Shown here piece after piece: positions 4,524 through 50,652 of a DNA stretch of 64,000 nucleotides. Made by a program: the position numbers and the translations under genes. Within the stretch, counting starts at the first letter, position 1, and the number at the start of each line of letters is the position of its first letter. The stretch is from positions 10,247 to 74,246 of the forward strand of contig CAYXTM010000005.1 of assembly GCA_964468585.1 (NCBI GenBank), in the 5' to 3' direction. This DNA is from an uncultured Thermoplasmatales archaeon. Its GTDB lineage: Archaea > Thermoplasmatota > Thermoplasmata > Thermoplasmatales > GCA-001856825. The notes beneath the pieces are model-generated. The model saw only the letters and a list, made by a program, of their open reading frames with translations, did not search any database and was not told the DNA's origin.

Positions 4524-5819
4524 TTATTCAGAGATAAGTAACTTTTTATAAAGCCCTTCCCTCTCTGCTATTTTAGCTGTTACCAAATCCAGCTTTTCCT
4601 TTACAAGGTCTGCCTTAATAGTACTGAATGTTGGCGGCTCAAATTCCATAAGGCCTTTACCTTCTTTCAGTGCATTTCCGATAATCTTGTATGAATCCTT
4701 CCATGTTTTTCCTTCGTGAATAAGCATAGCGGCATTATGCGTCGCATAGATTGAATTGCTAAGCTTGATTTTATCCTCCCTAATTTTAATCCTGGATAAC
4801 ATATCAAAGAAGGCTTGCATAAGCTTAGGCACCAATTCTAAACTTTCGATTGCACCCCATTTCAGGATTTGGAATTCTCTGTGATACCATGAACCCTTTC
4901 CAATAAGAGCCTGGCTGGTCATAACCCCAAGAGAATTTATCTTTATCGCATACCCTATGAACATTTCAAGAAAATCTGGATTTTTCTTGTTGGGCATAAG
5001 AGAGCTGCCAGTTACGTATTCCTCAGGCAATTCTATAAATCCGGATTCTCCAGACCATAGAATCAAATCCTGGGCAATCCTTGAATTGAATAGGGTGATA
5101 TTGGAAAGGACCTGAATAACCCTTAGTTCATCAAAACCACGTAAATTTGCTAGTAAGAGAGGGTTTTTGTTGGAGTCCTTTAGTCCCAGTAGATTTGAAA
5201 ACTTGCACAGATCAAATGAAGACAGGGAGCCAAAGCCAGAACCGTACCCCATCACCGGTACAGAGAGGTAATCTATCATTTTATCTAGTTCATCCAGAAT
5301 TTCGAAATTGAACGAAAGCACCATATCCATATAGCTGCGTAATTTTATGGGCATGGCATCTCTATAATGGGTAAGCCCAGGAATAGTCGGATTAATTTTT
5401 AAATTCTCAGACAACTTCAAAATACCTTCAAGTATGATTTTTTCCAAATTAAGAAGACCATCGATTACGTAAAGTCTAAGGTCACTGTGTATCTGTTCAT
5501 TTCTGGAGAGCAGTATTCTCAAATATTCACCCGAATCCTTCGAAATTTTAGATATTGCATCCTCAACATATGAATGTATGTCTTCGTATCCTTGCAAAGA
5601 AGCAATTCCTTTAGAATATAGTTCCTGGATAGCTCTTATGATAGAATTCTTAATTTCGACATTTTCAATCAAAGGGTCTATGGACTCATGATAGGCAATC
5701 AAATTCAACAATTCATACTTGAACATTAGGAAGTCATATTTTGAATCATCGCCGATCATAAGATCAAGGGCCTTCTTTTCTTTTCCGTTAGCAAGCCCAT
5801 TCTCCCATAATTTATACAT
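4524..5819 (-). CDS. argininosuccinate lyase-like (fumarate-lyase superfamily)
   Basis: 431 aa. Superfamily signature TGSSLMPNKKNPD, where KKNPD is argininosuccinate-lyase-like rather than PurB-like. It is shorter than a typical ArgH, so the exact substrate is uncertain. Confidence 0.65.
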   Translation of the reverse strand: MYKLWENGLANGKEKKALDLMIGDDSKYDFLMFKYELLNLIAYHESIDPLIENVEIKNSIIRAIQELYSKGIASLQGYEDIHSYVEDAISKISKDSGEYLRILLSRNEQIHSDLRLYVIDGLLNLEKIILEGILKLSENLKINPTIPGLTHYRDAMPIKLRSYMDMVLSFNFEILDELDKMIDYLSVPVMGYGSGFGSLSSFDLCKFSNLLGLKDSNKNPLLLANLRGFDELRVIQVLSNITLFNSRIAQDLILWSGESGFIELPEEYVTGSSLMPNKKNPDFLEMFIGYAIKINSLGVMTSQALIGKGSWYHREFQILKWGAIESLELVPKLMQAFFDMLSRIKIREDKIKLSNSIYATHNAAMLIHEGKTWKDSYKIIGNALKEGKGLMEFEPPTFSTIKADLVKEKLDLVTAKIAEREGLYKKLLISE

Positions 5820-5866
5820 GTAAAAAACAGATCAATATAACTTATAAATAAAACGGACAGAATTAA

Positions 5867-6532
5867 TCATTTCAAATATAATTTGATATAATCTGGCAAA
5901 TTTACATCTTTTTCAGTCTGTGGCTCACCCTTTATGACCTTTAATGGAATGATCCCTTCCCATATCTTATCATCGGAATAATTCATTCCGAATCCTTTTC
6001 TGATTTTTACGGAAAAGTTAATGATTTCAAGTTTAAAGACCGCAACCTTCGAGAGTTCCTCGTGGGAAGGGTGAATTGAATCATCCCATCTACCAGGTAT
6101 GATGCGTTCGGTTAATTCCCTGAAAACATTCAACTTTTCATTTTCATCCTTTATTTCAACCGCTTTCCCATAGATTATGGCAGATCGATAATTGACAGAA
6201 TTGTTGGCTACTCTTGAGCTTAGAACTATCCCATCTATTAATAGTACAGTAAATGTTATCACATTCTCAGAATTAAGTATACTATACATTCTGCTCTCTG
6301 GGGAGCAGTGTAAATAGACATCTTTTCCATGATTGATGTAATTCATTGGAATTGTGTAAGCTACATCATTTTCGGAAAAAGAAACAGTTGATATGAATGT
6401 TGAATTCAGTATCCCTATCAAATCTTCCTCCTTGTAACTCGCGCGGTTGGCATACCTTCTGACTTTGTAGTTTATCTTTGGGTCCTTCACAATATTTAAT
6501 TGTGAACTTATACTATATCCTTTTCCTGGCAA
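5867..6532 (-). CDS. pyridoxamine 5'-phosphate oxidase-like FMN-binding protein (COG3467/NimA-like)
   Basis: 221 aa. The pattern RRYANRASY...YLHCSPES...NYRSAIIYGKA.EI.DE.EK...PGRW...S.KIR matches the Pyridox_ox_2-type split-barrel family as I remember it. It overlaps the 3' end of the GH57 gene by 25 nt on the same strand. Confidence 0.65.
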   Translation of the reverse strand: MPGKGYSISSQLNIVKDPKINYKVRRYANRASYKEEDLIGILNSTFISTVSFSENDVAYTIPMNYINHGKDVYLHCSPESRMYSILNSENVITFTVLLIDGIVLSSRVANNSVNYRSAIIYGKAVEIKDENEKLNVFRELTERIIPGRWDDSIHPSHEELSKVAVFKLEIINFSVKIRKGFGMNYSDDKIWEGIIPLKVIKGEPQTEKDVNLPDYIKLYLK

Positions 6533-7650
6533 TATCTAAATCTCAGGTCTTCCAATATGTTGCGGAAGGTAATATAGGCATCAAATGGAGACCCATAGGG
6601 ATTGAAATAATTATGTACAATCATATCCGGTGAGCTCCCAAGCGACATATAATAAAGATGGTCTGATGTGGACAAAGAACCAAATATATCAGGAGGTACA
6701 CAATCTTTAAGTTTTTTCAAGGCTTCAAAGGCATCCCTCTGCAATTCATTTCCAGTCCATGCACTTAGGTCCCTTGGGATGTCGGCCCAGGAAATGTAAT
6801 CCGGTACCGATATTGTACCTTTAGACTCAAGTTTTAATGATGCATCCCCTATGGTCGTAAATTCCAGACCGAATTCTGGACCTCTCTGAATAACAGTTTT
6901 AAAAAATTCAAAAATTCCCGTTTCCTTCCTTTGGTGTTCCCCAAAAGTTTCGAAATCCATGAAGAGATTTATAACCTCCCCAGGTGCTTTTGAAAGCCAT
7001 TCCAAATACTTGTCTGCGTATAGAGGGTATTCATTCCAGGAAGTATTGGAAAATCTGAAGGAGATATCGTCGCTCAGTGGATAATTCCTCAAGAACAAAT
7101 TATGTCCGTTAACTGAGCTATATTTATAGTTTGGATTATATATGGAAACCAAGGAATCAGTTCCTTCCGTGAGTATATTCTTTATGCCAATATCCTTTAC
7201 TTCAAAATCAACTTTATCACTGTATATCATCTCTGTATTCCTGAATGTCACGATATTCCTTTTGTATATCTCTTTCTTCACTTCCATATCTTTCTTTACC
7301 TCATTCACAAATAACTCTGGTTCCCATATAGAAGAAAGACTGTGATAATAGGTTTCTGCAACCATTTCACCAGAAGTTTCATGCAGATAGTCATTAAGAT
7401 GATCAAAAACATCTACCCTATATTCAAGAAGCTGTTCTAGGAGGATACCCGAAAAGGATAACGAAATAGGTACATTCAATTCTGTTAAAAGTTCCAGTAA
7501 CGGTGTATAGGAATTATCGGATATTCTATCCAGCAGCTCCCTATTTCTTTCCGTCCAGAAATAGTCCCTTTTATGTCTAATATCCTGATAGCGAAAATCT
7601 CTAAGCCTCCTTGGTTGGTGTGCCTCTAAAAATATGCATATATATTTCAT
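6508..7650 (-). CDS. glycoside hydrolase family 57 (alpha-amylase / alpha-glucan-active enzyme)
   Basis: The start at ATG 7650 (MKYICIFLEAHQPRR) forms an ATGA overlap with the upstream gene's stop. GH57 conserved regions are present: HQP, GEMVAETYYH, FRNTEMIY (candidate nucleophile Glu) and FMDFETFGEH (candidate acid/base Asp). Confidence 0.75.
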   Translation of the reverse strand: MKYICIFLEAHQPRRLRDFRYQDIRHKRDYFWTERNRELLDRISDNSYTPLLELLTELNVPISLSFSGILLEQLLEYRVDVFDHLNDYLHETSGEMVAETYYHSLSSIWEPELFVNEVKKDMEVKKEIYKRNIVTFRNTEMIYSDKVDFEVKDIGIKNILTEGTDSLVSIYNPNYKYSSVNGHNLFLRNYPLSDDISFRFSNTSWNEYPLYADKYLEWLSKAPGEVINLFMDFETFGEHQRKETGIFEFFKTVIQRGPEFGLEFTTIGDASLKLESKGTISVPDYISWADIPRDLSAWTGNELQRDAFEALKKLKDCVPPDIFGSLSTSDHLYYMSLGSSPDMIVHNYFNPYGSPFDAYITFRNILEDLRFRYCQEKDIV

Positions 7651-8798
7651 AATGATGCATAAACCTCCAGAGTTTTTAAAGCAGCATTTTCCCATGTAAA
7701 TCTGGAAGCCTCAACTTTTCCAAGGATTCCCATGGTCTCCCTTAATTTTTGATATTTTGCTAGGGCCATCACGTAACTACTCATCTTGTCAGTGTCCCAG
7801 AAATCCGCTTTCAATACATTCCCCAATGCCTCTCCAACACCAGTGGTCTTGCTTATGATCACCGGAGTACCAGATGACATGGCTTCAATCACAGTCATTC
7901 CGAATGGTTCTGAAACAGCAGGCAAGATAAATACATCTGAGCTAATATAGAATTTTATGGCCTCTGAATCGCTCACGAATCCGTGGAATATAACATTCTT
8001 GAGATCTTTGGTCCTGGCAAAGGACTGAAGTTCATTTAACTGATCCCCAGTTCCTGCTACTATGAAGTTAAGATCATTCATGTATTCGGAAACTTTAGCA
8101 GCAATCTCAAGGAAAAATTTTGCACCCTTCTGTGGGGTCACTCTACCAAAATACAATATCTTCTTTTTTAAATCATAAGTCCTGTTGTACATTGAATAGA
8201 TTTGACTCTTGACTCCGTTATGAATGACTTGAATCTTTCCTGGATCAATTCCAAAATTCCTAACTATAATATCCTTGGTGTAATGTGAAACTGCGATTAT
8301 CTTGTCTGCAGCTATCATCCCCTCTTTTTCCAGTTTCAGTATCCTCGGCTGTGGATTAAACCCGCCGGACCTATCATATTCTGTGCTGTGAACTGTCATG
8401 ACAAGTTTCTTTCCATACTTATATTTCAAATAAATACCCGCTGGGACTGTAATCCAGTCGTGAATGTGGTAAATTTCATGGGATGGACTAACGGAAGTTT
8501 TCAAAACTTCATTATATTCCATTACATTATAATAAAAATCATTATTTCTGTTGTAGGGCGATCCCATGGGATTATAATCCACCATTACTACTTTGAAAGG
8601 ATAGTTCAGCTTGTTTTCACTAAATTTCGGTATGTAAAGAGTGAGATTCAATGAACTTGAAAGGGCAGAAAAGAGATTGTACGTGTGTATCCCAAGTCCT
8701 CCTGAGAAAAAAGGGGGTAGCTCCCATCCCAGAACTCCAATATCCTTCAAACTTTCAGATCCTCCTTGAAGGCTCTGATAATTTCCCCATAACTCCAT
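7647..8798 (-). CDS. glgA: glycogen synthase / GT-B glycosyltransferase
   Basis: Has the N-terminal FFSGGLGIHTY motif and a C-terminal GT-B core (PAVSEPFGMTVIEAMSSGTPVI). The ORF's first ATG is at 8798. A TTG at 8750 would instead give a TTGA overlap with the upstream stop and a canonical-length N-terminus (M/LKDIGVLGWE...GGLG). Confidence 0.8.
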   Translation of the reverse strand: MELWGNYQSLQGGSESLKDIGVLGWELPPFFSGGLGIHTYNLFSALSSSLNLTLYIPKFSENKLNYPFKVVMVDYNPMGSPYNRNNDFYYNVMEYNEVLKTSVSPSHEIYHIHDWITVPAGIYLKYKYGKKLVMTVHSTEYDRSGGFNPQPRILKLEKEGMIAADKIIAVSHYTKDIIVRNFGIDPGKIQVIHNGVKSQIYSMYNRTYDLKKKILYFGRVTPQKGAKFFLEIAAKVSEYMNDLNFIVAGTGDQLNELQSFARTKDLKNVIFHGFVSDSEAIKFYISSDVFILPAVSEPFGMTVIEAMSSGTPVIISKTTGVGEALGNVLKADFWDTDKMSSYVMALAKYQKLRETMGILGKVEASRFTWENAALKTLEVYASL

Positions 8799-45373: not shown

Positions 45374-46624
45374 TTAAAAAAGGGGTCGCTGGTCTGGTCT
45401 TACGTTTGCAAGAGGTTTCATAGCCTCATCATTTTCTATTATTTTCACTATGGCGGAAGTTTCATAGTTTAGCTGAATTACAGTGGTTCTTCCATATCTG
45501 CCAAAGCTCTGCACCTCGGATGATATTATTCCCATTTTATCCAATTCTGATATCAGATCTGAAATACGTCTGCTAGTGAGCGGAGGGATACCAATTTTCT
45601 TTATGGCTTTTAAATAGAGATCGTATACTTCTCCAGACGTTATTTTTCCACCACCCTTTATTTCCTTTAGTAGCACTACTGAATACAAGATCGCTTTGGA
45701 ATGAAGGGGGAGGGAAGAAATTATCTCCGTGAACACGTTCCTTTCCAGTCTATCCCTTGCCTCATATATTGAATCCTCGTCAAGCTTTTTCTTATTTTTG
45801 AACAATGCGATCTCGTAAGAGACTCTCAAGAGATCTATAGCCCTTCTAGCATCACCGTTTTCCTGGGCTCCAATGGCGGCAGCCAATCTCAATACAGGCT
45901 CATCAACCATGTCTATGATACCAGAGAACAGGGCTCTATCACGTAGGATGTCATAAATTTCATTGGCTGTATATGGATGGAATACGATAGTCTCTTCCTG
46001 CAGCCTGCTTCTAACCCTTGGGTCCAGATAGTCCATAAATTTCAGATCATTGCTTATGCCTATTATGGATACTTTTCCATTTTTGGATATTTCATTTATT
46101 CTTAGGAGTTGATAGAGAACTGCATCACCTGACTTTTTGACCAATTTATCTACCTCATCAAGGGTCAAAATTAACACTCCACCGAACTCCTCTATCTTTT
46201 CTTGAACAGATTGAAACAATTTATCCATAGGCCATCCTGTAAAGGGAAATTTTTCTTCCCAGGAGTAGAGCAGAGAGTTACCTACGCTAGCCAAAATGCT
46301 ATAAGAACTATCATTTACACCGCAATTTAAGTTTATAACCCTGACTTTGGCATCAAATTTAGTGTTAATTATATTTTCAAGTTCCCGTTCTACAAATTTA
46401 ACAGTACTGGTCTTCCCAACTCCAGGCTTTCCGAATATAAGGATATTTGATGGCCTGCTACCCTGAATAGCAGGAGATAAAATCTGAGCTATTTGCTCAA
46501 CTTCCTTTTCTCTATGAGGTAACCTCTGAGGAATAAATGAGGGATCGAGAGCCTCTTTAACTTTTCCAGCTTCATTGTTAGATTCAAGAAACTTTTCAAA
46601 TATGTTTCTGCTCTCTGAATTCAT
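45374..46624 (-). CDS. cdc6: Orc1/Cdc6 replication initiator
   Basis: 416 aa. Contains LPHREKEVEQI, ILIFGKPGVGKTS (Walker A), ILTLDEVD (Walker B) and a C-terminal winged helix. Confidence 0.9.
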   Translation of the reverse strand: MNSESRNIFEKFLESNNEAGKVKEALDPSFIPQRLPHREKEVEQIAQILSPAIQGSRPSNILIFGKPGVGKTSTVKFVERELENIINTKFDAKVRVINLNCGVNDSSYSILASVGNSLLYSWEEKFPFTGWPMDKLFQSVQEKIEEFGGVLILTLDEVDKLVKKSGDAVLYQLLRINEISKNGKVSIIGISNDLKFMDYLDPRVRSRLQEETIVFHPYTANEIYDILRDRALFSGIIDMVDEPVLRLAAAIGAQENGDARRAIDLLRVSYEIALFKNKKKLDEDSIYEARDRLERNVFTEIISSLPLHSKAILYSVVLLKEIKGGGKITSGEVYDLYLKAIKKIGIPPLTSRRISDLISELDKMGIISSEVQSFGRYGRTTVIQLNYETSAIVKIIENDEAMKPLANVRPDQRPLF

Positions 46625-46781: not shown

Positions 46782-48068
46782 TTAATTTCCACTGGAAGAA
46801 TATTGATTTTTTATTAAATTGTCAAGAATATTTTCAGCTTCACCTACCAAATACATTGAACCAGTTATGACAGTATTGATTTTCCTTTCTATTATAGACT
46901 TAATTGCATCTTCTGGCCTTTTTATGATTTCCACATCTTTAAAGAATAATTTTGCCTCAGAAGCCAGCTCTTCAGCGCTCTTTTTGCGATCCTGTTCATT
47001 TGGTTCAGTTATTACGACATGGTCTGAGACCTTAGAGAGGTTATTTAGCACATTATAACTGTTTTTATCCTTTAGTATACCCAAAATAATTAGAGGATTC
47101 TTGATATTATAAAGTTGCAAGTTCTCGGCTAGAACTCTTGATGCTTCTGAATTATGTGACCCATCAAGTATTATTAGTGGGTCCCTACTCCTGACTTCCA
47201 TTCTACCCGGAACAACTGTATCGTTTATGGATTTTACCAAAATTTCTTCATCCGAAATAGCATTGGATTCTATAAGGGCCATGGTTGCTAAGCAAGCATT
47301 TTGGATTTGGTGCTTACCTAGGGCCCTCAATGAAAATTTAAATTCACGGTCTCCATATTTAAATCTAAATTGTGTGCCGTCTATAGAATAATTTATTCCG
47401 TCAACCATATTCATGTCAAAGTTAAAGATTGGGGAATTTTTAGATTTTGCAACTTTTTCTATTTCAACATATGCCTTTTGAGGTATTTGATTCACTATTA
47501 CTGGTTTGTTTTCTTTTATAATCCCCGCTTTTTCTCTAGCAATGCTTTCAATGTATCCGCCAAGCTTGTCAGCATGCTCTAACGAAATGGATGTAATTAC
47601 TGAAGCCTCCGGATTTATGATGTTAGTTGAGTCCAATCTGCCACCCATACCTACTTCTATGGCCGCATATTGAACATTTTTGAATCTGAAATAATCAAAT
47701 GCCATAACAGTAGTAAACTCAAAAAATGTTAATTGAGTCTCCACTCCATCTATATTTACAACTGGTTTGTGTTTTTTCAAAAAATCTTCTATGTACTCAT
47801 CCTCTATTTCAATATCTTGTACGATAATCCTCTCGTTGAATCTTCTTAGGTGTGGGGAGGTGTATATTCCTGCAATATATTTCCTCTTAAGGGCGTTATA
47901 TATAAAAGTCGTAGTACTCCCCTTTCCATTAGAGCCGGTAATATGTATTGACTTAAAGGTATCCTGCGGATTACCCAGTTCACTTGCAAATTTGCTTGTC
48001 GGGCCTAAACCCAATTTAACACCGAACCTTGATAGTGAATAGAAGTAATCCTCAATTTCCTTTTTCAT
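46782..48068 (-). CDS. folC: folylpolyglutamate synthase / dihydrofolate synthase (Mur-ligase family)
   Basis: 428 aa. Contains IHITGSNGKGST (P-loop), the Mur-ligase middle domain (AAIEVGMGGRLDSTN) and the C-terminal domain (ILDGSHN). Confidence 0.75.
   Translation of the reverse strand: MKKEIEDYFYSLSRFGVKLGLGPTSKFASELGNPQDTFKSIHITGSNGKGSTTTFIYNALKRKYIAGIYTSPHLRRFNERIIVQDIEIEDEYIEDFLKKHKPVVNIDGVETQLTFFEFTTVMAFDYFRFKNVQYAAIEVGMGGRLDSTNIINPEASVITSISLEHADKLGGYIESIAREKAGIIKENKPVIVNQIPQKAYVEIEKVAKSKNSPIFNFDMNMVDGINYSIDGTQFRFKYGDREFKFSLRALGKHQIQNACLATMALIESNAISDEEILVKSINDTVVPGRMEVRSRDPLIILDGSHNSEASRVLAENLQLYNIKNPLIILGILKDKNSYNVLNNLSKVSDHVVITEPNEQDRKKSAEELASEAKLFFKDVEIIKRPEDAIKSIIERKINTVITGSMYLVGEAENILDNLIKNQYSSSGN
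46785..46798 (-). promoter_or_regulatory. mini-ORB-like repeat (second copy)
   Basis: ATTTCCACTGGAAG is repeated exactly, in the same orientation as at 46721-46734. This copy has no G-string and lies in the last codons of the FolC-like ORF. Confidence 0.45.
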
Positions 48069-48123: not shown

Positions 48124-48822
48124 ATGGCTGAAATAAGAGTAATAGTTGTGGAACCAAAAAATCCAGGTAATTTAGGATCCATCGCAAGGATAATGAAAAA
48201 TTTCTCAGTAGATGAACTTTACACTGTAAACACTCCGCGAATTCCTCCTGAGGACTTCTTTAGATCAATGAAGGGAGAAGAAATTCTCAGGAAAAGGATC
48301 GATGTACCCACTCTAAAGGATGCAATTAAAGACCTTAAATTAGTAATTGGAACTTCTGGCATCATATCAAAATCAAGGAATGCGGTTTTGAGGAAAAACT
48401 ATAATTCTAAGGAAATATCAAAATTGGTTTCAGGATTGGAAGGGAAGATAGGGGTGGTTTTTGGTAGAGAAGATATTGGGCTTACAAACGAGGAACTGGC
48501 TTTGTGCGATCTGTTCCTCCAAATTCCAGCAAATGATGACTATCCAATTCTAAATGTTTCACATGCTGTTGCAATAGTTCTTTATGAACTATTTTCCACT
48601 ACGAAGGACGAGCAAAGAGACATAATCGATAGGTACAAATTAGATTTATTGGTAAAGAAATTCAGGCAAAACCTAATAGCCAATAATTATCCTAAACATA
48701 GAGTGGATAAGACTGAGCTACTATTCCGGAGGGTTATAGCAAGGGCAGGGATCACTGAATACGAGTATAGAGTTCTGATGGGAACAATCGGTTGTAGAAA
48801 TCGTGACCTCCATTCAGAGTGA
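48124..48822 (+). CDS. SpoU/TrmH-class RNA 2'-O-methyltransferase (TrmJ-like)
   Basis: 232 aa. Contains VVEPKNPGNLGSIARIMKNF, VVFGREDIGLTNEEL and ILNVSHAVAIVLYE, which are SPOUT motifs 1-3. Confidence 0.7.
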   Translation: MAEIRVIVVEPKNPGNLGSIARIMKNFSVDELYTVNTPRIPPEDFFRSMKGEEILRKRIDVPTLKDAIKDLKLVIGTSGIISKSRNAVLRKNYNSKEISKLVSGLEGKIGVVFGREDIGLTNEELALCDLFLQIPANDDYPILNVSHAVAIVLYELFSTTKDEQRDIIDRYKLDLLVKKFRQNLIANNYPKHRVDKTELLFRRVIARAGITEYEYRVLMGTIGCRNRDLHSE

Positions 48823-49489
48823 AGGCATTTATGGTGTACATTTTTGTTTGATTGTACTTTAGAATTTCAATTCCGTATTTTTGGGAGATCTTATTGGCCT
48901 CATCTTCTGTGGGGGATCCAACTACCCCCACTAGACCGTCCGGATGCTTTTTGTAATAAGTGAAAAGAATATCACTCTCTAGGCCTTCAATTGTTTTAGA
49001 TTCTCCATGAACAAAGCCAGAAATGTCAAAGTTTGATAGTTCATTCATATAGCCTTTTAGGCTATCTATTAGCTCTGAAACAGTTTCGTTTATTTTGTCC
49101 AATAACTCCTTTACTGAAGAGTTTACGTACTTCTGTGCGAAATTTTCATTTTCTATCATTATTGTCTTGTCAATATTCTTTTGGATCTTGACTAAAGTAT
49201 TCGTTGCTCTCCTGTCCCTCTCTGGAGACTCACTCTTGAATGGCATAATTGCTATGAAAAATATTTTCTCTCCTCTTGACTTTAAACCCTCCAATAAGGT
49301 AGGCAGGTGTTTTGATGAAAAATTTCCAGCCGGTGATGCGACTACTATAGTGTAGTCGGTTCTCTTAAAAGTACCCCTATTTTCCCATTCCTCTCTATTT
49401 CTCAATCTATATATGAAGGTATGATTAACAGATGTGACAGAATTAACCCCTGCATCTCCCAGTGCAATGATTTTGAATCTGTCTGACAT
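48752..49489 (-). CDS. divergent FtsZ/tubulin-fold protein with degenerate nucleotide-binding motifs
   Basis: The start is set at ATG 49489 (MSDRFKIIALGDAGVNSV) because a TATA-like TTTAAATA sits about 26 nt upstream. It is collinear with FtsZ by eye. T1 is GDAGVN (FtsZ has GGAGNN). T4 is ASPAGNFSS (FtsZ has GGGTGTG). IFFIAIMPFKSESPERDRRA corresponds to VVT.PF.FEG..R. TIMIENE corresponds to LIVIPN. T7 is NFDISG (FtsZ has NVDFAD). Confidence 0.55.
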   Translation of the reverse strand: MSDRFKIIALGDAGVNSVTSVNHTFIYRLRNREEWENRGTFKRTDYTIVVASPAGNFSSKHLPTLLEGLKSRGEKIFFIAIMPFKSESPERDRRATNTLVKIQKNIDKTIMIENENFAQKYVNSSVKELLDKINETVSELIDSLKGYMNELSNFDISGFVHGESKTIEGLESDILFTYYKKHPDGLVGVVGSPTEDEANKISQKYGIEILKYNQTKMYTINAFTLNGGHDFYNRLFPSELYTRIQ

Positions 49490-49511
49490 AAATATGACAT
49501 TATTATGACAG

Positions 49512-49519
49512 TATTTAAA
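49512..49519 (-). promoter_or_regulatory. TATA-like box for the FtsZ-like gene
   Basis: Minus-strand TTTAAATA is centred about 26 nt upstream of ATG 49489. Such boxes are common by chance in AT-rich DNA. Confidence 0.35.
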
Positions 49520-49545
49520 CATTTCCCCATTACAATGTATAACAA

Positions 49546-50604
49546 TTAATTTCTAATTTTCATCAGTGCCTTTAGCAAAATATTCTTTTGGACATTAAGA
49601 GAAAAAGTGTTTTTAACGCCTCCTCCATAACCGAACCCTTTCTTTTCCTTATTGAGCAAACCGGCATTTTCCATATCTCTCAATAGTTTGTAAATTCTCG
49701 ATTCTGGCATGTCAGATGCATATTTTTTAAGGTCATCTGAAGTAAAGTTGTTTTTATTGAGATTATTGAGGAAAATTATTAGAATTTCAATTTCCCAGTC
49801 ATCCAGGTATTCCAGAGCACTGTTATCTATAGGCTCTGAGAATTCCCTACTAACATCAAGTATAAGTTCTGGTGATAATGGAACATCTCTCATTTCCGCC
49901 AATTTGCTTGAATATCTTAACAGTTCTATAGCTATTCTTGCATTACCGGATGGATTTGAAATTTCTGCGATTTTGTAAAGGGATTCATCATCATATGTTC
50001 CATCATATAGTCCGAGTTGGGCCCTATCTTTGAGAATAGAAAACAACTGTTCTATGCCATAATCTGGAAGGTTGACCTGATTTAGCTTGTTCAGGGTTGA
50101 TAATGTATGAACATCCATAAACATTTCTGGATCTTCAATAGTAAGAAGGAGCAATTTCACAGGTGGCAAATTAAGTTCAGTGGACCTCCCCAGAAGATAA
50201 ATTATCCTGCTATTGCTTGCCTTTAGTGAATGGACTTCATCCAAAATAATGAGATTGTTTCTGGGAAGATCTCTGAAGATCTGTCTTGCAATATTTTCAA
50301 TACTGGATGATAGAAATTCTCCACCTCTCCAAATATCCTTTTTTGCAATTTCGGAAAGTATTAGTCTGTCTGAGTTGGATATATAACAATTAACATAGCT
50401 GCTACTGTATTCCCGGTGCTTTTTTATTATGTGCTTGGCAATTACAGTCTTACCAGTCCCTGGTTTTCCTTTCAAGACTACAGTTGATTGTGCATCGGAA
50501 CTGAAAAGAAGTTTATCTATCAAATGTACTTCATTATCCCTACCTATCAACTTCTCTGGGATGTATTCCGGGGTTAGGAAGACTTCATTCTTTATAATCC
50601 TCAT
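49546..50604 (-). CDS. Orc1/Cdc6 paralog (second copy)
   Basis: 352 aa. Contains LIGRDNEV, VVLKGKPGTGKT (Walker A), LIILDEVH (Walker B) and a C-terminal wHTH (IYKLLRDMENAGLL). Confidence 0.85.
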   Translation of the reverse strand: MRIIKNEVFLTPEYIPEKLIGRDNEVHLIDKLLFSSDAQSTVVLKGKPGTGKTVIAKHIIKKHREYSSSYVNCYISNSDRLILSEIAKKDIWRGGEFLSSSIENIARQIFRDLPRNNLIILDEVHSLKASNSRIIYLLGRSTELNLPPVKLLLLTIEDPEMFMDVHTLSTLNKLNQVNLPDYGIEQLFSILKDRAQLGLYDGTYDDESLYKIAEISNPSGNARIAIELLRYSSKLAEMRDVPLSPELILDVSREFSEPIDNSALEYLDDWEIEILIIFLNNLNKNNFTSDDLKKYASDMPESRIYKLLRDMENAGLLNKEKKGFGYGGGVKNTFSLNVQKNILLKALMKIRN

Positions 50605-50652
50605 TAAAGTTAAAAAGGCAAAGGTAATTATAAATGCTATTATACAGATTTT

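Follow-up and report, generated by a model that had tools for sequence, protein, structure and literature searches.

A shortened FtsZ homologue without canonical GTPase motifs, encoded beside a Cdc6-like gene in uncultured Thermoplasmatales

INTRODUCTION

What can remain of FtsZ, and still be selected for, once the parts needed for polymerization have gone? FtsZ is usually regarded as a conserved, GTP-driven filament former: each subunit has its GTPase site completed by the T7 loop of the adjoining one, and half of the longitudinal interface is formed by the C-terminal domain. The question is raised by a locus in a 64,000-nucleotide stretch of DNA (the window, by which we mean the whole stretch analyzed) from an uncultured Thermoplasmatales archaeon (GenBank assembly GCA_964468585.1, contig CAYXTM010000005.1, positions 10,247 to 74,246). 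Here, a gene for a 245-residue protein, which we refer to as mini-FtsZ, lies directly downstream of a divergent Cdc6/Orc1-like gene, referred to as Cdc6L. The original prediction, made from the sequence alone, took this protein to be a compact relative of FtsZ with degenerate GTP-binding and T7 motifs, acting as a pseudo-GTPase or as a regulator of canonical FtsZ. We find that mini-FtsZ is indeed a homologue of FtsZ, and we consider it slightly better than an even bet (probability of about 0.55) that it is a tightly regulated, non-polymerizing, FtsZ-derived pseudo-GTPase or adaptor.

RESULTS

Mini-FtsZ is a homologue of FtsZ

Sequence and structure comparisons related mini-FtsZ to FtsZ far beyond chance. 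The Pfam Tubulin family (PF00091) matched residues 39 to 119 with 32.1 bits (E = 1.7e-7), 0.9 bit short of the gathering score of 33. A phmmer search of PDB sequences returned FtsZ (1w5f) as the top match (E = 6e-4), and the other matches were mostly FtsZ as well, with weaker ones to V-type ATPase subunit H, ferritin and others mixed in. Alignment of the family profile to an FtsZ alignment by hhalign gave 99.2% (E = 3e-19) over residues 5 to 147, and 99.4% (E = 3.7e-21) when only the long forms of the protein (see below) were used. Among named cytoskeletal proteins, a profile of 30 aligned family sequences matched FtsZ best (4.5e-7) and then CetZ (0.018), and no match of this profile to tubulin, TubZ or PhuZ was detected.

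The predicted structure led to the same family. An AlphaFold2 (AF2) model of the window protein, built on the 30-sequence family alignment, reached a predicted local distance difference test score (pLDDT) of 86.9 and a predicted template-modeling score (pTM) of 0.84; an alignment of two sequences had given an unusable pLDDT of 48.7. When this model was searched with Foldseek, the top 50 PDB matches were all FtsZ or CetZ (E = 3e-11 to 3e-9, probability 1.00), with query-normalized template-modeling (TM) scores of 0.6 to 0.71 and alignments to FtsZ that spanned the full length. Among viral structure models, phage FtsZ matched best (1e-7) and PhuZ/tubulin-like proteins followed (1e-3 to 1e-4). 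In these structural comparisons, the two-domain FtsZ fold, consisting of a Rossmann-like N-domain, helix H7 and an alpha/beta C-domain, was found in the long forms only. The score against the full-length FtsZ model TIGR00065 was 23.3 bits, with a cut-off of 295.2, and the Pfam scan found no match to FtsZ_C (PF12327) in the window protein. The collinearity with FtsZ that had been proposed by eye was thus borne out by Pfam, phmmer, hhalign and Foldseek. Neither a non-tubulin Rossmann fold nor an unrelated family emerged; the fold is that of FtsZ/CetZ and the profiles are those of FtsZ.

The nucleotide pocket is partly retained, and T3, T4 and T7 are not

In HMMER and hhalign alignments, the proposed by-eye alignment proved to be in register, with ALGDAGVN facing GVGGAGxN of FtsZ, ASPAGNFSS facing AGxGGGTGSG, MPFKSES facing PFxFEG and IENENF facing IxNExL. 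Across the 30 aligned sequences, which are 29 to 48% identical to the window protein, the invariant residues are M1, S2 and D3; G11, A13, G14 and N16 in T1; S52, P53, G55, F57 and S58 at the position of T4; L62; P83, F84, E87, S88 and R91 in the T5 region, followed by R94; and N114, E115, N116 and F117 in S6/T6. At T4, A54 and S59 occur in 90% or more of the sequences, and F57 is a Tyr in locus L009, which lies outside that alignment. N134, which occupies the position of the FtsZ H7 Asp, is likewise shared by 90% or more of the 30 sequences.

The tubulin signature GGGTG(T/S)G is replaced by SPAGNFS, as originally proposed, and the replacement extends to every family member in the form SPAGx(F/Y)SS. 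The shortening between T1 and T4, put at about 40 residues in the original prediction, amounts to about 45 to 50 residues relative to FtsZ by hhalign; the missing parts are T3 and most of T2, S3 and H3. In the AF2 model, H7 (residues 126 to 151) reaches strand S7 (156 to 164) after only 4 residues, with neither a T7 loop nor H8 between them. The segment NFDISGF, which had been read as a T7-like motif, was rejected, being unconserved in relatives (GFKNLGF, DARRVGL and DTREIGL) and corresponding in the model to the start of S7 (I156 to F159). Judging from the alignment, the window's subclade is more degenerate than most members: the G-to-D change that gives GDAG in T1 is confined to it, GGAG being found in most relatives, and it has no counterpart of the IDS that most members carry at the T2 position.

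Downstream of H7, the model contains strands at residues 156 to 164, 185 to 192, 207 to 214 and 218 to 225 and helices at 167 to 173 and 195 to 205. A profile-profile search detected no similarity between this C-terminal domain and that of FtsZ, and it is solely the predicted fold that suggests its FtsZ origin.

Mini-FtsZ forms a small family under purifying selection

A HMMER scan of 1.84 billion cluster representatives returned only five proteins below 1e-10, with ordinary FtsZ appearing near 1e-6, and about 30 protein clusters came from a word-indexed search with the family profile. When one genome of each GTDB species was scanned, mini-FtsZ was present in 22 species, all of them represented by metagenome-assembled genomes of uncultured Thermoplasmatales/Thermoplasmata/Thermoplasmatota from acidic and hot-spring sites, including "I-plasma" from Iron Mountain. 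The proteins fall into two length classes: long forms of 245 to 260 residues with a C-terminal domain, to which the window protein belongs, and short forms of 173 to 183 residues, which end soon after H7 and from which the C-terminal domain is absent. Short forms make up 23 of the 30 aligned sequences; they are labeled "cell division GTPase FtsZ" by the Joint Genome Institute (JGI). From these sequence searches, mini-FtsZ appears to be a small family restricted to a clade of uncultured Thermoplasmatales-like acidophiles. It is apparently undescribed: no description was found in superfamily surveys (PMC9871819; PMC2875224) or in Thermoplasmatales genomics papers (PMC3750248; PMC10354927), in an incomplete coverage of the literature that makes this absence of evidence only.

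For pairs of relatives with a synonymous divergence (dS) below 1, the ratio of nonsynonymous to synonymous divergence (dN/dS) was 0.10 to 0.15 for mini-FtsZ and 0.05 to 0.09 for Cdc6L. We thus conclude from the former value that mini-FtsZ is functional and under purifying selection. It is nevertheless the fastest-evolving gene of the neighborhood, with 47% identity between the window and related locus L001, compared with 60% for Cdc6L and 68 to 93% for the other genes.

Many of the short forms (P0005, P0056-P0077) end in a similar decapeptide, approximately (F/Y)x(P/S)Nx(S/A)xS(L/M)N, that follows a variable stretch of about 25 residues. No gene overlaps this peptide, which some members of the family do not have and which might be a short linear motif. 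In many short-form loci (L003 at about 6640-7580, L005, L012 and others), a gene for a pyridoxal-phosphate enzyme (PALP) lies between mini-FtsZ and the SpoU methylase gene. This insertion is not linked to the loss of the C-terminal domain, since the proteins of L017, L018, L026 and L038 are short without PALP.

The start codon and the 3' overlap

The reading frame for 245 residues runs from 49489 to 48752 on the minus strand in the open reading frame (ORF) listing, and a longer in-frame reading, 48752-49522, gives 256 residues from an upstream ATG at 49522. The recorded gene call for the contig (P0001, 256 residues) begins at this upstream ATG, at 49520-49522, ahead of the TATA box. Every mini-FtsZ homologue shares the N terminus MSD, the TATA box (49512-49519) lies between the two ATGs, at -30 to -23 from 49489, and the promoter block (see below) is positioned relative to ATG 49489. 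We therefore take 49489 as the true start, in agreement with the ORF originally listed; the recorded call is probably 11 codons too long. The stop codon of Cdc6L occupies 49546-49548, and the gap to mini-FtsZ is thus 56 nt. The adjacency to a Cdc6 paralogue that had been noted is real, but the gap of 23 nt given for it is obtained only from ATG 49522.

At its 3' end, mini-FtsZ converges on the SpoU methylase gene (48124-48822, plus strand). Convergent overlaps of 70 to 90 nt recur in long-form loci (L001 8684-8763; L002 6671-6759), and in long forms the 23 codons at the end of mini-FtsZ run antisense to the conserved C-terminal TEYEYRVLMG of SpoU (the window tail reads PSELYTRIQ). The PSE(L)Y tail was considered as a partner-binding peptide resembling the C-terminal peptide of FtsZ and was rejected: TEYEYRVLMG is equally conserved in loci without overlap, and the apparent conservation of PSELY is explained by its antisense position.

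A conserved promoter carries three direct repeats

The promoter was analyzed in an alignment of 21 loci and in the upstream sequences of 37 loci. The 57 bp before the mini-FtsZ ATG are invariant or nearly so in the 21-locus alignment and are far better conserved than the protein, while the sequence upstream of GTTATAC could not be aligned among these loci. The TATA-like box that the gene had been said to possess was confirmed and is conserved in all relatives; from its position, a leaderless transcript starting at or beside the ATG is predicted. Three TGTCA repeats, spaced by 11 bp, run into the start codon. The codons of the third repeat, TCA in 19 of the 21 loci and GAC in all of them (in a genome of about 37% GC), appear to be fixed at the DNA level. 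Each of 35 loci contains a single copy of the TGTCA double repeat, invariably at -21, and the copy in the window is unique there; a search for a regulon found no second operator in the window or in the 35 loci. GTTATACRT alone occurs at chance-level frequency. A Rfam scan of the promoter and window for RNA elements returned only a tRNA-Gln.

Archaeal repressors typically act on sites between the TATA box and +7, and from the conserved layout we infer that a dedicated DNA-binding regulator acts on the TGTCA repeats. Cdc6L is one candidate for this role, by analogy with Orc1-2 of Sulfolobales, a non-initiator Orc1/Cdc6 protein that works as a transcription regulator (PMC6061795).

Cdc6L is a divergent Cdc6 paralogue

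Cdc6L scored 118 bits against TIGR02928 (cut-off, 181) and matched Cdc6_C weakly (E = 0.011). Aligned with canonical Orc1, it retains Walker A (GxPGTGKT), Walker B (LDE) and the sensor-2 GxAR. Its sensor-1 Asn is replaced (ISND to TIED or SMEE), the DPRVxSR box is missing, and the winged helix has a 9-residue deletion. It is the second-fastest-evolving gene of the block, and in view of its motif losses the pair as a whole consists of degenerate copies of core proteins of the cell cycle. Close homologues, in nine clusters of the same clade at a threshold of 1e-20, were found only on contigs that also carry mini-FtsZ; at this threshold more distant orthologues are possible. Like Cdc6L, Orc1-2 has AAA+, lid and winged-helix domains and is not an origin-adjacent initiator (PMC6061795). 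Unlike Orc1-2, Cdc6L belongs to a separate, clade-restricted lineage, with its sensor-1 Asn, DPRVxSR box and wing arginines replaced, and its DNA binding is putative.

Between Cdc6L and the divergent aldo-keto reductase gene lies a shared promoter of 48 nt (50605-50652), with a TATA element, TTTATAATTA, about 30 nt before the Cdc6L start. This TTTATAATTA is conserved in all relatives, and the promoter contains no TGTCA repeats.

The pair lies in a syntenic block near a probable origin

The gene order in every locus is dCMP deaminase, aldo-keto reductase (opposite strand), Cdc6L, mini-FtsZ, SpoU (opposite strand), FolC, one or more origin recognition box (ORB)-like elements and Orc1. The locus is chromosomal and syntenic, and there are no mobile-element genes among the neighbors. 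The Cdc6-adjacent position is conserved in relatives, as the original prediction had proposed to check: among the 35 loci with both genes on the contig, 34 have a distance of 54 to 76 nt between the Cdc6L stop and the mini-FtsZ start. The sole exception is L015, in which three genes (2.7 kb, 5281-8001) separate the two while the promoter block stays joined to mini-FtsZ. The inserted genes encode a QueA-like queuosine synthesis protein, a short-chain dehydrogenase (SDR) and a MarR/HTH_24 winged-helix protein. In a metagenome scan with Orc1 that was aimed at intermediate lineages, the next lineage out (Orc1 47 to 48% identical) showed the order MFS-FolC-HflX-Orc1, with neither Cdc6L nor mini-FtsZ at that place. 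By this comparison, Cdc6L and mini-FtsZ can be said to be a shared, clade-restricted innovation.

The ORB-like repeats reported near the first orc1/cdc6 gene were located as two elements, and the motif TTCCA(C/G)TGGAA between folC and orc1 is conserved in 32 related loci, which supports an origin about 2 to 2.7 kb from mini-FtsZ. The features of the locus are listed in Table 1.

Table 1. Features of the mini-FtsZ locus; nucleotide positions refer to the window, with its first letter as position 1
Feature	Nucleotide position	Strand	Residues or offset from ATG	Basis or remark
Mini-FtsZ coding sequence, long form with C-terminal domain	48752..49489	-	245 residues	ORF, Pfam, hhalign, AF2, Foldseek, dN/dS
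T1 equivalent, ALGDAGVNS	49439..49465	-	9-17	Aligns to FtsZ GVGGAGxN
T4 signature position, ASPAGNFSS	49313..49339	-	51-59	HMMER and hhalign alignments to FtsZ AGxGGGTGSG
T5 region, MPFKSESPER	49217..49246	-	82-91	Aligns to FtsZ PFxFEG
S6/T6 region, IENENF	49139..49156	-	112-117	Aligns to FtsZ IxNExL
Helix H7	49037..49114	-	126-151	AF2 secondary structure, hhalign columns
C-terminal domain, four strands and two helices	48809..49024	-	156-227	AF2, Foldseek
Model element S1			5-10	AF2 model
Model element H1			11-17	AF2 model
Model short strand			26-29	AF2 model
Model element S4			46-51	AF2 model
Model element H4			56-71	AF2 model
Model element S5			75-82	AF2 model
Model element H5			89-105	AF2 model
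Model element S6			108-113	AF2 model
Model elements S7, H9, S8, H10, S9, S10 (four strands, two helices)			156-225	AF2 model
Model disordered tail			228-245	AF2 model
Convergent overlap of mini-FtsZ tail and SpoU methylase gene 3' end, 71 nt	48752..48822	both		ORF coordinates
Promoter/operator block	49483..49543	-		21-locus alignment, upstream sequences of 37 loci
GTTATAC	49537-49543		-54 to -48	Invariant
A-rich run resembling a B recognition element (BRE)				Directly upstream of TATA box
TATA box, TTTAAATA	49512-49519		-30 to -23	TTTAAATA or CTTATATA across loci
TGTCA(T) repeat 1	49505-49510		-21	
TGTCA(T) repeat 2	49494-49499		-10	
TGTCA(G) repeat 3	49483-49488		+2	Within ATG-TCA-GAC
Cdc6L, divergent Cdc6/Orc1-like AAA+ paralogue, directly upstream	49546..50604	-	352 residues	Cdc6_lid E 8.6e-14 and AAA families
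Canonical orc1/cdc6 initiator gene	45374..46624	-	416 residues	NF001625 475 bits, TIGR02928 380 bits, Cdc6_C E 3e-27
Two ORB-like elements, TTCCACTGGAA	46723-46733 and 46787-46797	+		Adjoin orc1; likely replication origin

DISCUSSION

The pseudo-GTPase reading of mini-FtsZ in the original prediction is a reasonable one, with T3 deleted, T4 replaced and T7 absent. The protein keeps the core of the FtsZ N-domain (S1, T1, S4 to S6 and H4 to H7) and, in the window's lineage, a C-terminal domain with a predicted FtsZ-like fold. It has lost T3, which senses the gamma-phosphate, the canonical T4 phosphate loop, and T7/H8, which activates hydrolysis across the filament interface. Because T7 and, in most members, the C-terminal domain are gone, the normal GTP-driven cycle of head-to-tail polymerization and hydrolysis should be out of its reach, and mini-FtsZ may instead serve as an adaptor or binding subunit without catalytic activity. 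What used to be the nucleotide pocket is probably still important, as a site for a ligand or as a protein interface, since the conserved T1, T5 Glu, T6 Asn, H7 Asn and SPAGxFSS line it. Expression would be gated by a DNA-binding protein seated on the repeats over the transcription start. The likeliest partner or regulator would be the co-inherited, upstream AAA+ protein Cdc6L, with which mini-FtsZ may form an origin-proximal, lineage-specific cell-cycle module; we hold this specific partnership with less confidence than the pseudo-GTPase reading as such.

Several points weigh against this proposal. We infer nucleotide binding, oligomeric state and partners alike, and what is said here of the pocket derives from sequence alignment. 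The long forms keep their C-terminal domain, and some self-association of these forms is possible. In the wing of Cdc6L, GRYGRT has become GYxGGV, and the loss of the arginines with which Orc1 contacts DNA weakens the case for its binding to the operator. The arrangement in L015 shows that mini-FtsZ is transcribed independently and that there is no strict operon. Finally, the whole 12-kb neighborhood is syntenic across the clade, so that the adjacency to Cdc6L could be plain inheritance and is, taken alone, weak functional evidence; conserved adjacency in one syntenic clade is suggestive of a link between replication and division and not proof of it.

Alternatively, mini-FtsZ might be a vestigial FtsZ orthologue, the last remnant of the FtsZ division machinery in a clade that is losing it; it would then serve, for example, as a static scaffold at the division site and lie beside Cdc6L incidentally. 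We regard this as unlikely, if deserving of serious consideration. FtsZ, SepF and PRC have undergone reductive evolution in Thermoplasmata, Picrophilus, Ferroplasma and Acidiplasma being without all three (PMC11188069), and I-plasma groups with this FtsZ-less cluster (PMC10354927). The protein resembles FtsZ and not CetZ or TubZ, both domains are kept in the long forms, and the short forms carry the JGI label; yet a remnant of this kind is hard to reconcile with the disappearance of T3, T4 and T7, with the absence from most members of the C-terminal domain that serves the longitudinal interface, and with a C-domain that neither matches FtsZ_C nor resembles it in sequence. A bolder form of the preferred adaptor reading, in which Cdc6L and an FtsZ remnant re-used as a non-polymerizing switch or adaptor make up an origin-proximal cell-cycle module that couples replication initiation to segregation or ESCRT-type division, is quite unlikely as a whole; this lineage-specific module would be assembled from degenerate versions of the replication initiator and the division GTPase, in a clade whose relatives have given up FtsZ-based division, and synthesis would then be gated through the triple TGTCA operator, possibly with Cdc6L as the gate. 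It is decidedly unlikely that mini-FtsZ caps or inhibits filaments of canonical FtsZ in dominant-negative style, docking its nucleotide-face (top) surface on their T7 face. By the established mechanism of FtsZ, a subunit without T7 can neither activate hydrolysis nor accept the next subunit, most members retain the N-domain alone, and tight promoter control suits an inhibitor. However, the top-face loops T3 and T4, much of the interface required, are deleted or replaced, related lineages are without canonical FtsZ (PMC11188069; PMC10354927), and no canonical FtsZ gene was found in the window or in any fetched locus.

The layout of the locus had also been likened to TubZ/TubR modules, and a DNA-segregation system of this type, with filaments that move a DNA-protein complex built by the winged-helix neighbor on the upstream repeats, is very improbable. 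TubZRC systems, which are carried by plasmids or phages, consist of a TubZ-family tubulin, a small DNA-binding protein, TubR, and a centromere of iterons. As in TubZ-TubR-tubC and PhuZ loci, a tubulin-fold gene adjoins a gene for a protein with a (here C-terminal) winged helix, three direct repeats with helical periodicity lie upstream of it, between the two genes, and the pair is near a replication origin. The likeness turned out to be weak. The profiles match FtsZ and then CetZ and show no similarity to TubZ or PhuZ, the structure is closer to FtsZ, with phage FtsZ ahead of PhuZ, and without T7 there would be no treadmilling; the short forms have no C-terminal domain either. The repeats are merely three times 6 bp within a core promoter, the partner is not a small winged helix-turn-helix protein but a 350-residue AAA+ Cdc6 paralogue with degenerate wing residues, and the locus is chromosomal and syntenic rather than part of a plasmid or phage, with no mobile-element genes. 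That the gene is a decaying pseudogene or an over-called ORF is hardly credible. It evolves faster than its neighbors (47% identity, against 60 to 93%), and at one metagenome contig (L036 4004-4650) it contains a 112-bp tandem duplication, which repeats ...ALGYKNSIFIDS...IIIVSSP and shifts the frame; the gene is either naturally disrupted there or misassembled. The ORF is nonetheless intact in the 22 GTDB species and in many metagenome contigs, and the low dN/dS, the invariant motifs, the confident fold and the highly conserved promoter already contradict such an explanation.

Compared with known systems, mini-FtsZ is most similar, in sequence and structure, to canonical FtsZ (bacterial FtsZ and archaeal FtsZ1; PDB 1w5f, 1fsz and 4u39). 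The order of elements is the same (S1-T1, S4-T4-H4, S5-T5-H5, S6-T6 and H7, then a four-stranded C-terminal domain), most members have a T1 of the form GxGGAGxN, and the T5 Glu and T6 Asn are kept. Unlike FtsZ, it is about 100 residues shorter, with T2/T3 deleted, SPAGxFSS in place of GGGTGTG and no T7/H8; it has no match to FtsZ_C and no supportable C-terminal linker and peptide, and most members are without the C-terminal domain. CetZ proteins, tubulin-like cell-shape proteins of archaea (PDB 3zid and 4b45), are the second-best structural match (E = 8e-11). They are archaeal FtsZ paralogues with a role outside division, keep intact GTP-binding and T7 motifs and are about 360 to 390 residues long; the profile match to mini-FtsZ is much weaker than that of FtsZ (E = 0.018).

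FtsZl1 and FtsZl2, two divergent branches of the FtsZ superfamily, were recognized through remote-homology methods (Makarova & Koonin 2010, PMC2875224), and we compared them with mini-FtsZ by description. FtsZl1 is likewise without recognizable T6-H7 elements or an FtsZ-type C-domain. Both branches keep the GGGTG(S/T)G that mini-FtsZ does not have, carry insertions between T1 and T4 where mini-FtsZ has a deletion, and end in a long C-terminal region, either a coiled coil or an approximately 300-residue domain, in contrast to a total length of 173 to 260 residues in mini-FtsZ. Their neighborhoods, with von Willebrand factor A (vWA) and OmpA genes, also differ (all PMC2875224). Homology and fold make mini-FtsZ a member of the FtsZ/tubulin superfamily, though one with neither the tubulin signature nor T7. 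By these comparisons of sequence features, it is neither a canonical FtsZ nor a CetZ, FtsZl1/FtsZl2 or TubZ protein.

The family retains a fold that is still selected for after loss of the signature phosphate loop, the gamma-phosphate sensor, T7 and mostly the entire C-terminal domain. It adjoins Thermoplasmatales genera reported to be without FtsZ and may show FtsZ at an intermediate stage, or put to a new use, in the course of the replacement of FtsZ-based division, an open question of archaeal cell biology. The pairing with Cdc6L near the origin and the conserved operator offer experimental handles on what may be a regulatory circuit of the archaeal cell cycle. The label "cell division GTPase FtsZ", applied by at least one annotation pipeline, could distort maps of FtsZ presence and absence in Thermoplasmata.

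A defense or phage origin of mini-FtsZ was also considered and rejected, PADLOC and PHROGs having returned generic P-loop matches only. Two kinds of possible relatives were set aside on account of their gene contexts. P0015 (L029 1248-2246), examined as an outgroup, is a divergent FtsZ-like protein of 332 residues in which GIAIMPFKFE and IIDNEDF recall mini-FtsZ and T4 is near-normal (GLGGTVGSS); it is flanked on its 3.5-kb contig by radical-SAM and PHP/tRNA-binding genes, an unrelated context. Three short proteins from unrelated organisms, P0007 (L071 712-1281), P0009 (L067 1547-1987) and P0011 (L069 22-636), consist of an FtsZ N-domain only (146 to 204 residues) with a shortened T1-T4 stretch. 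They have no Cdc6 neighbor and lie in phage- or defense-like contexts, P0009 near an ORF6N/pRha antirepressor-like gene and P0007 beside PDDEXK_4 nuclease and WYL-domain genes.

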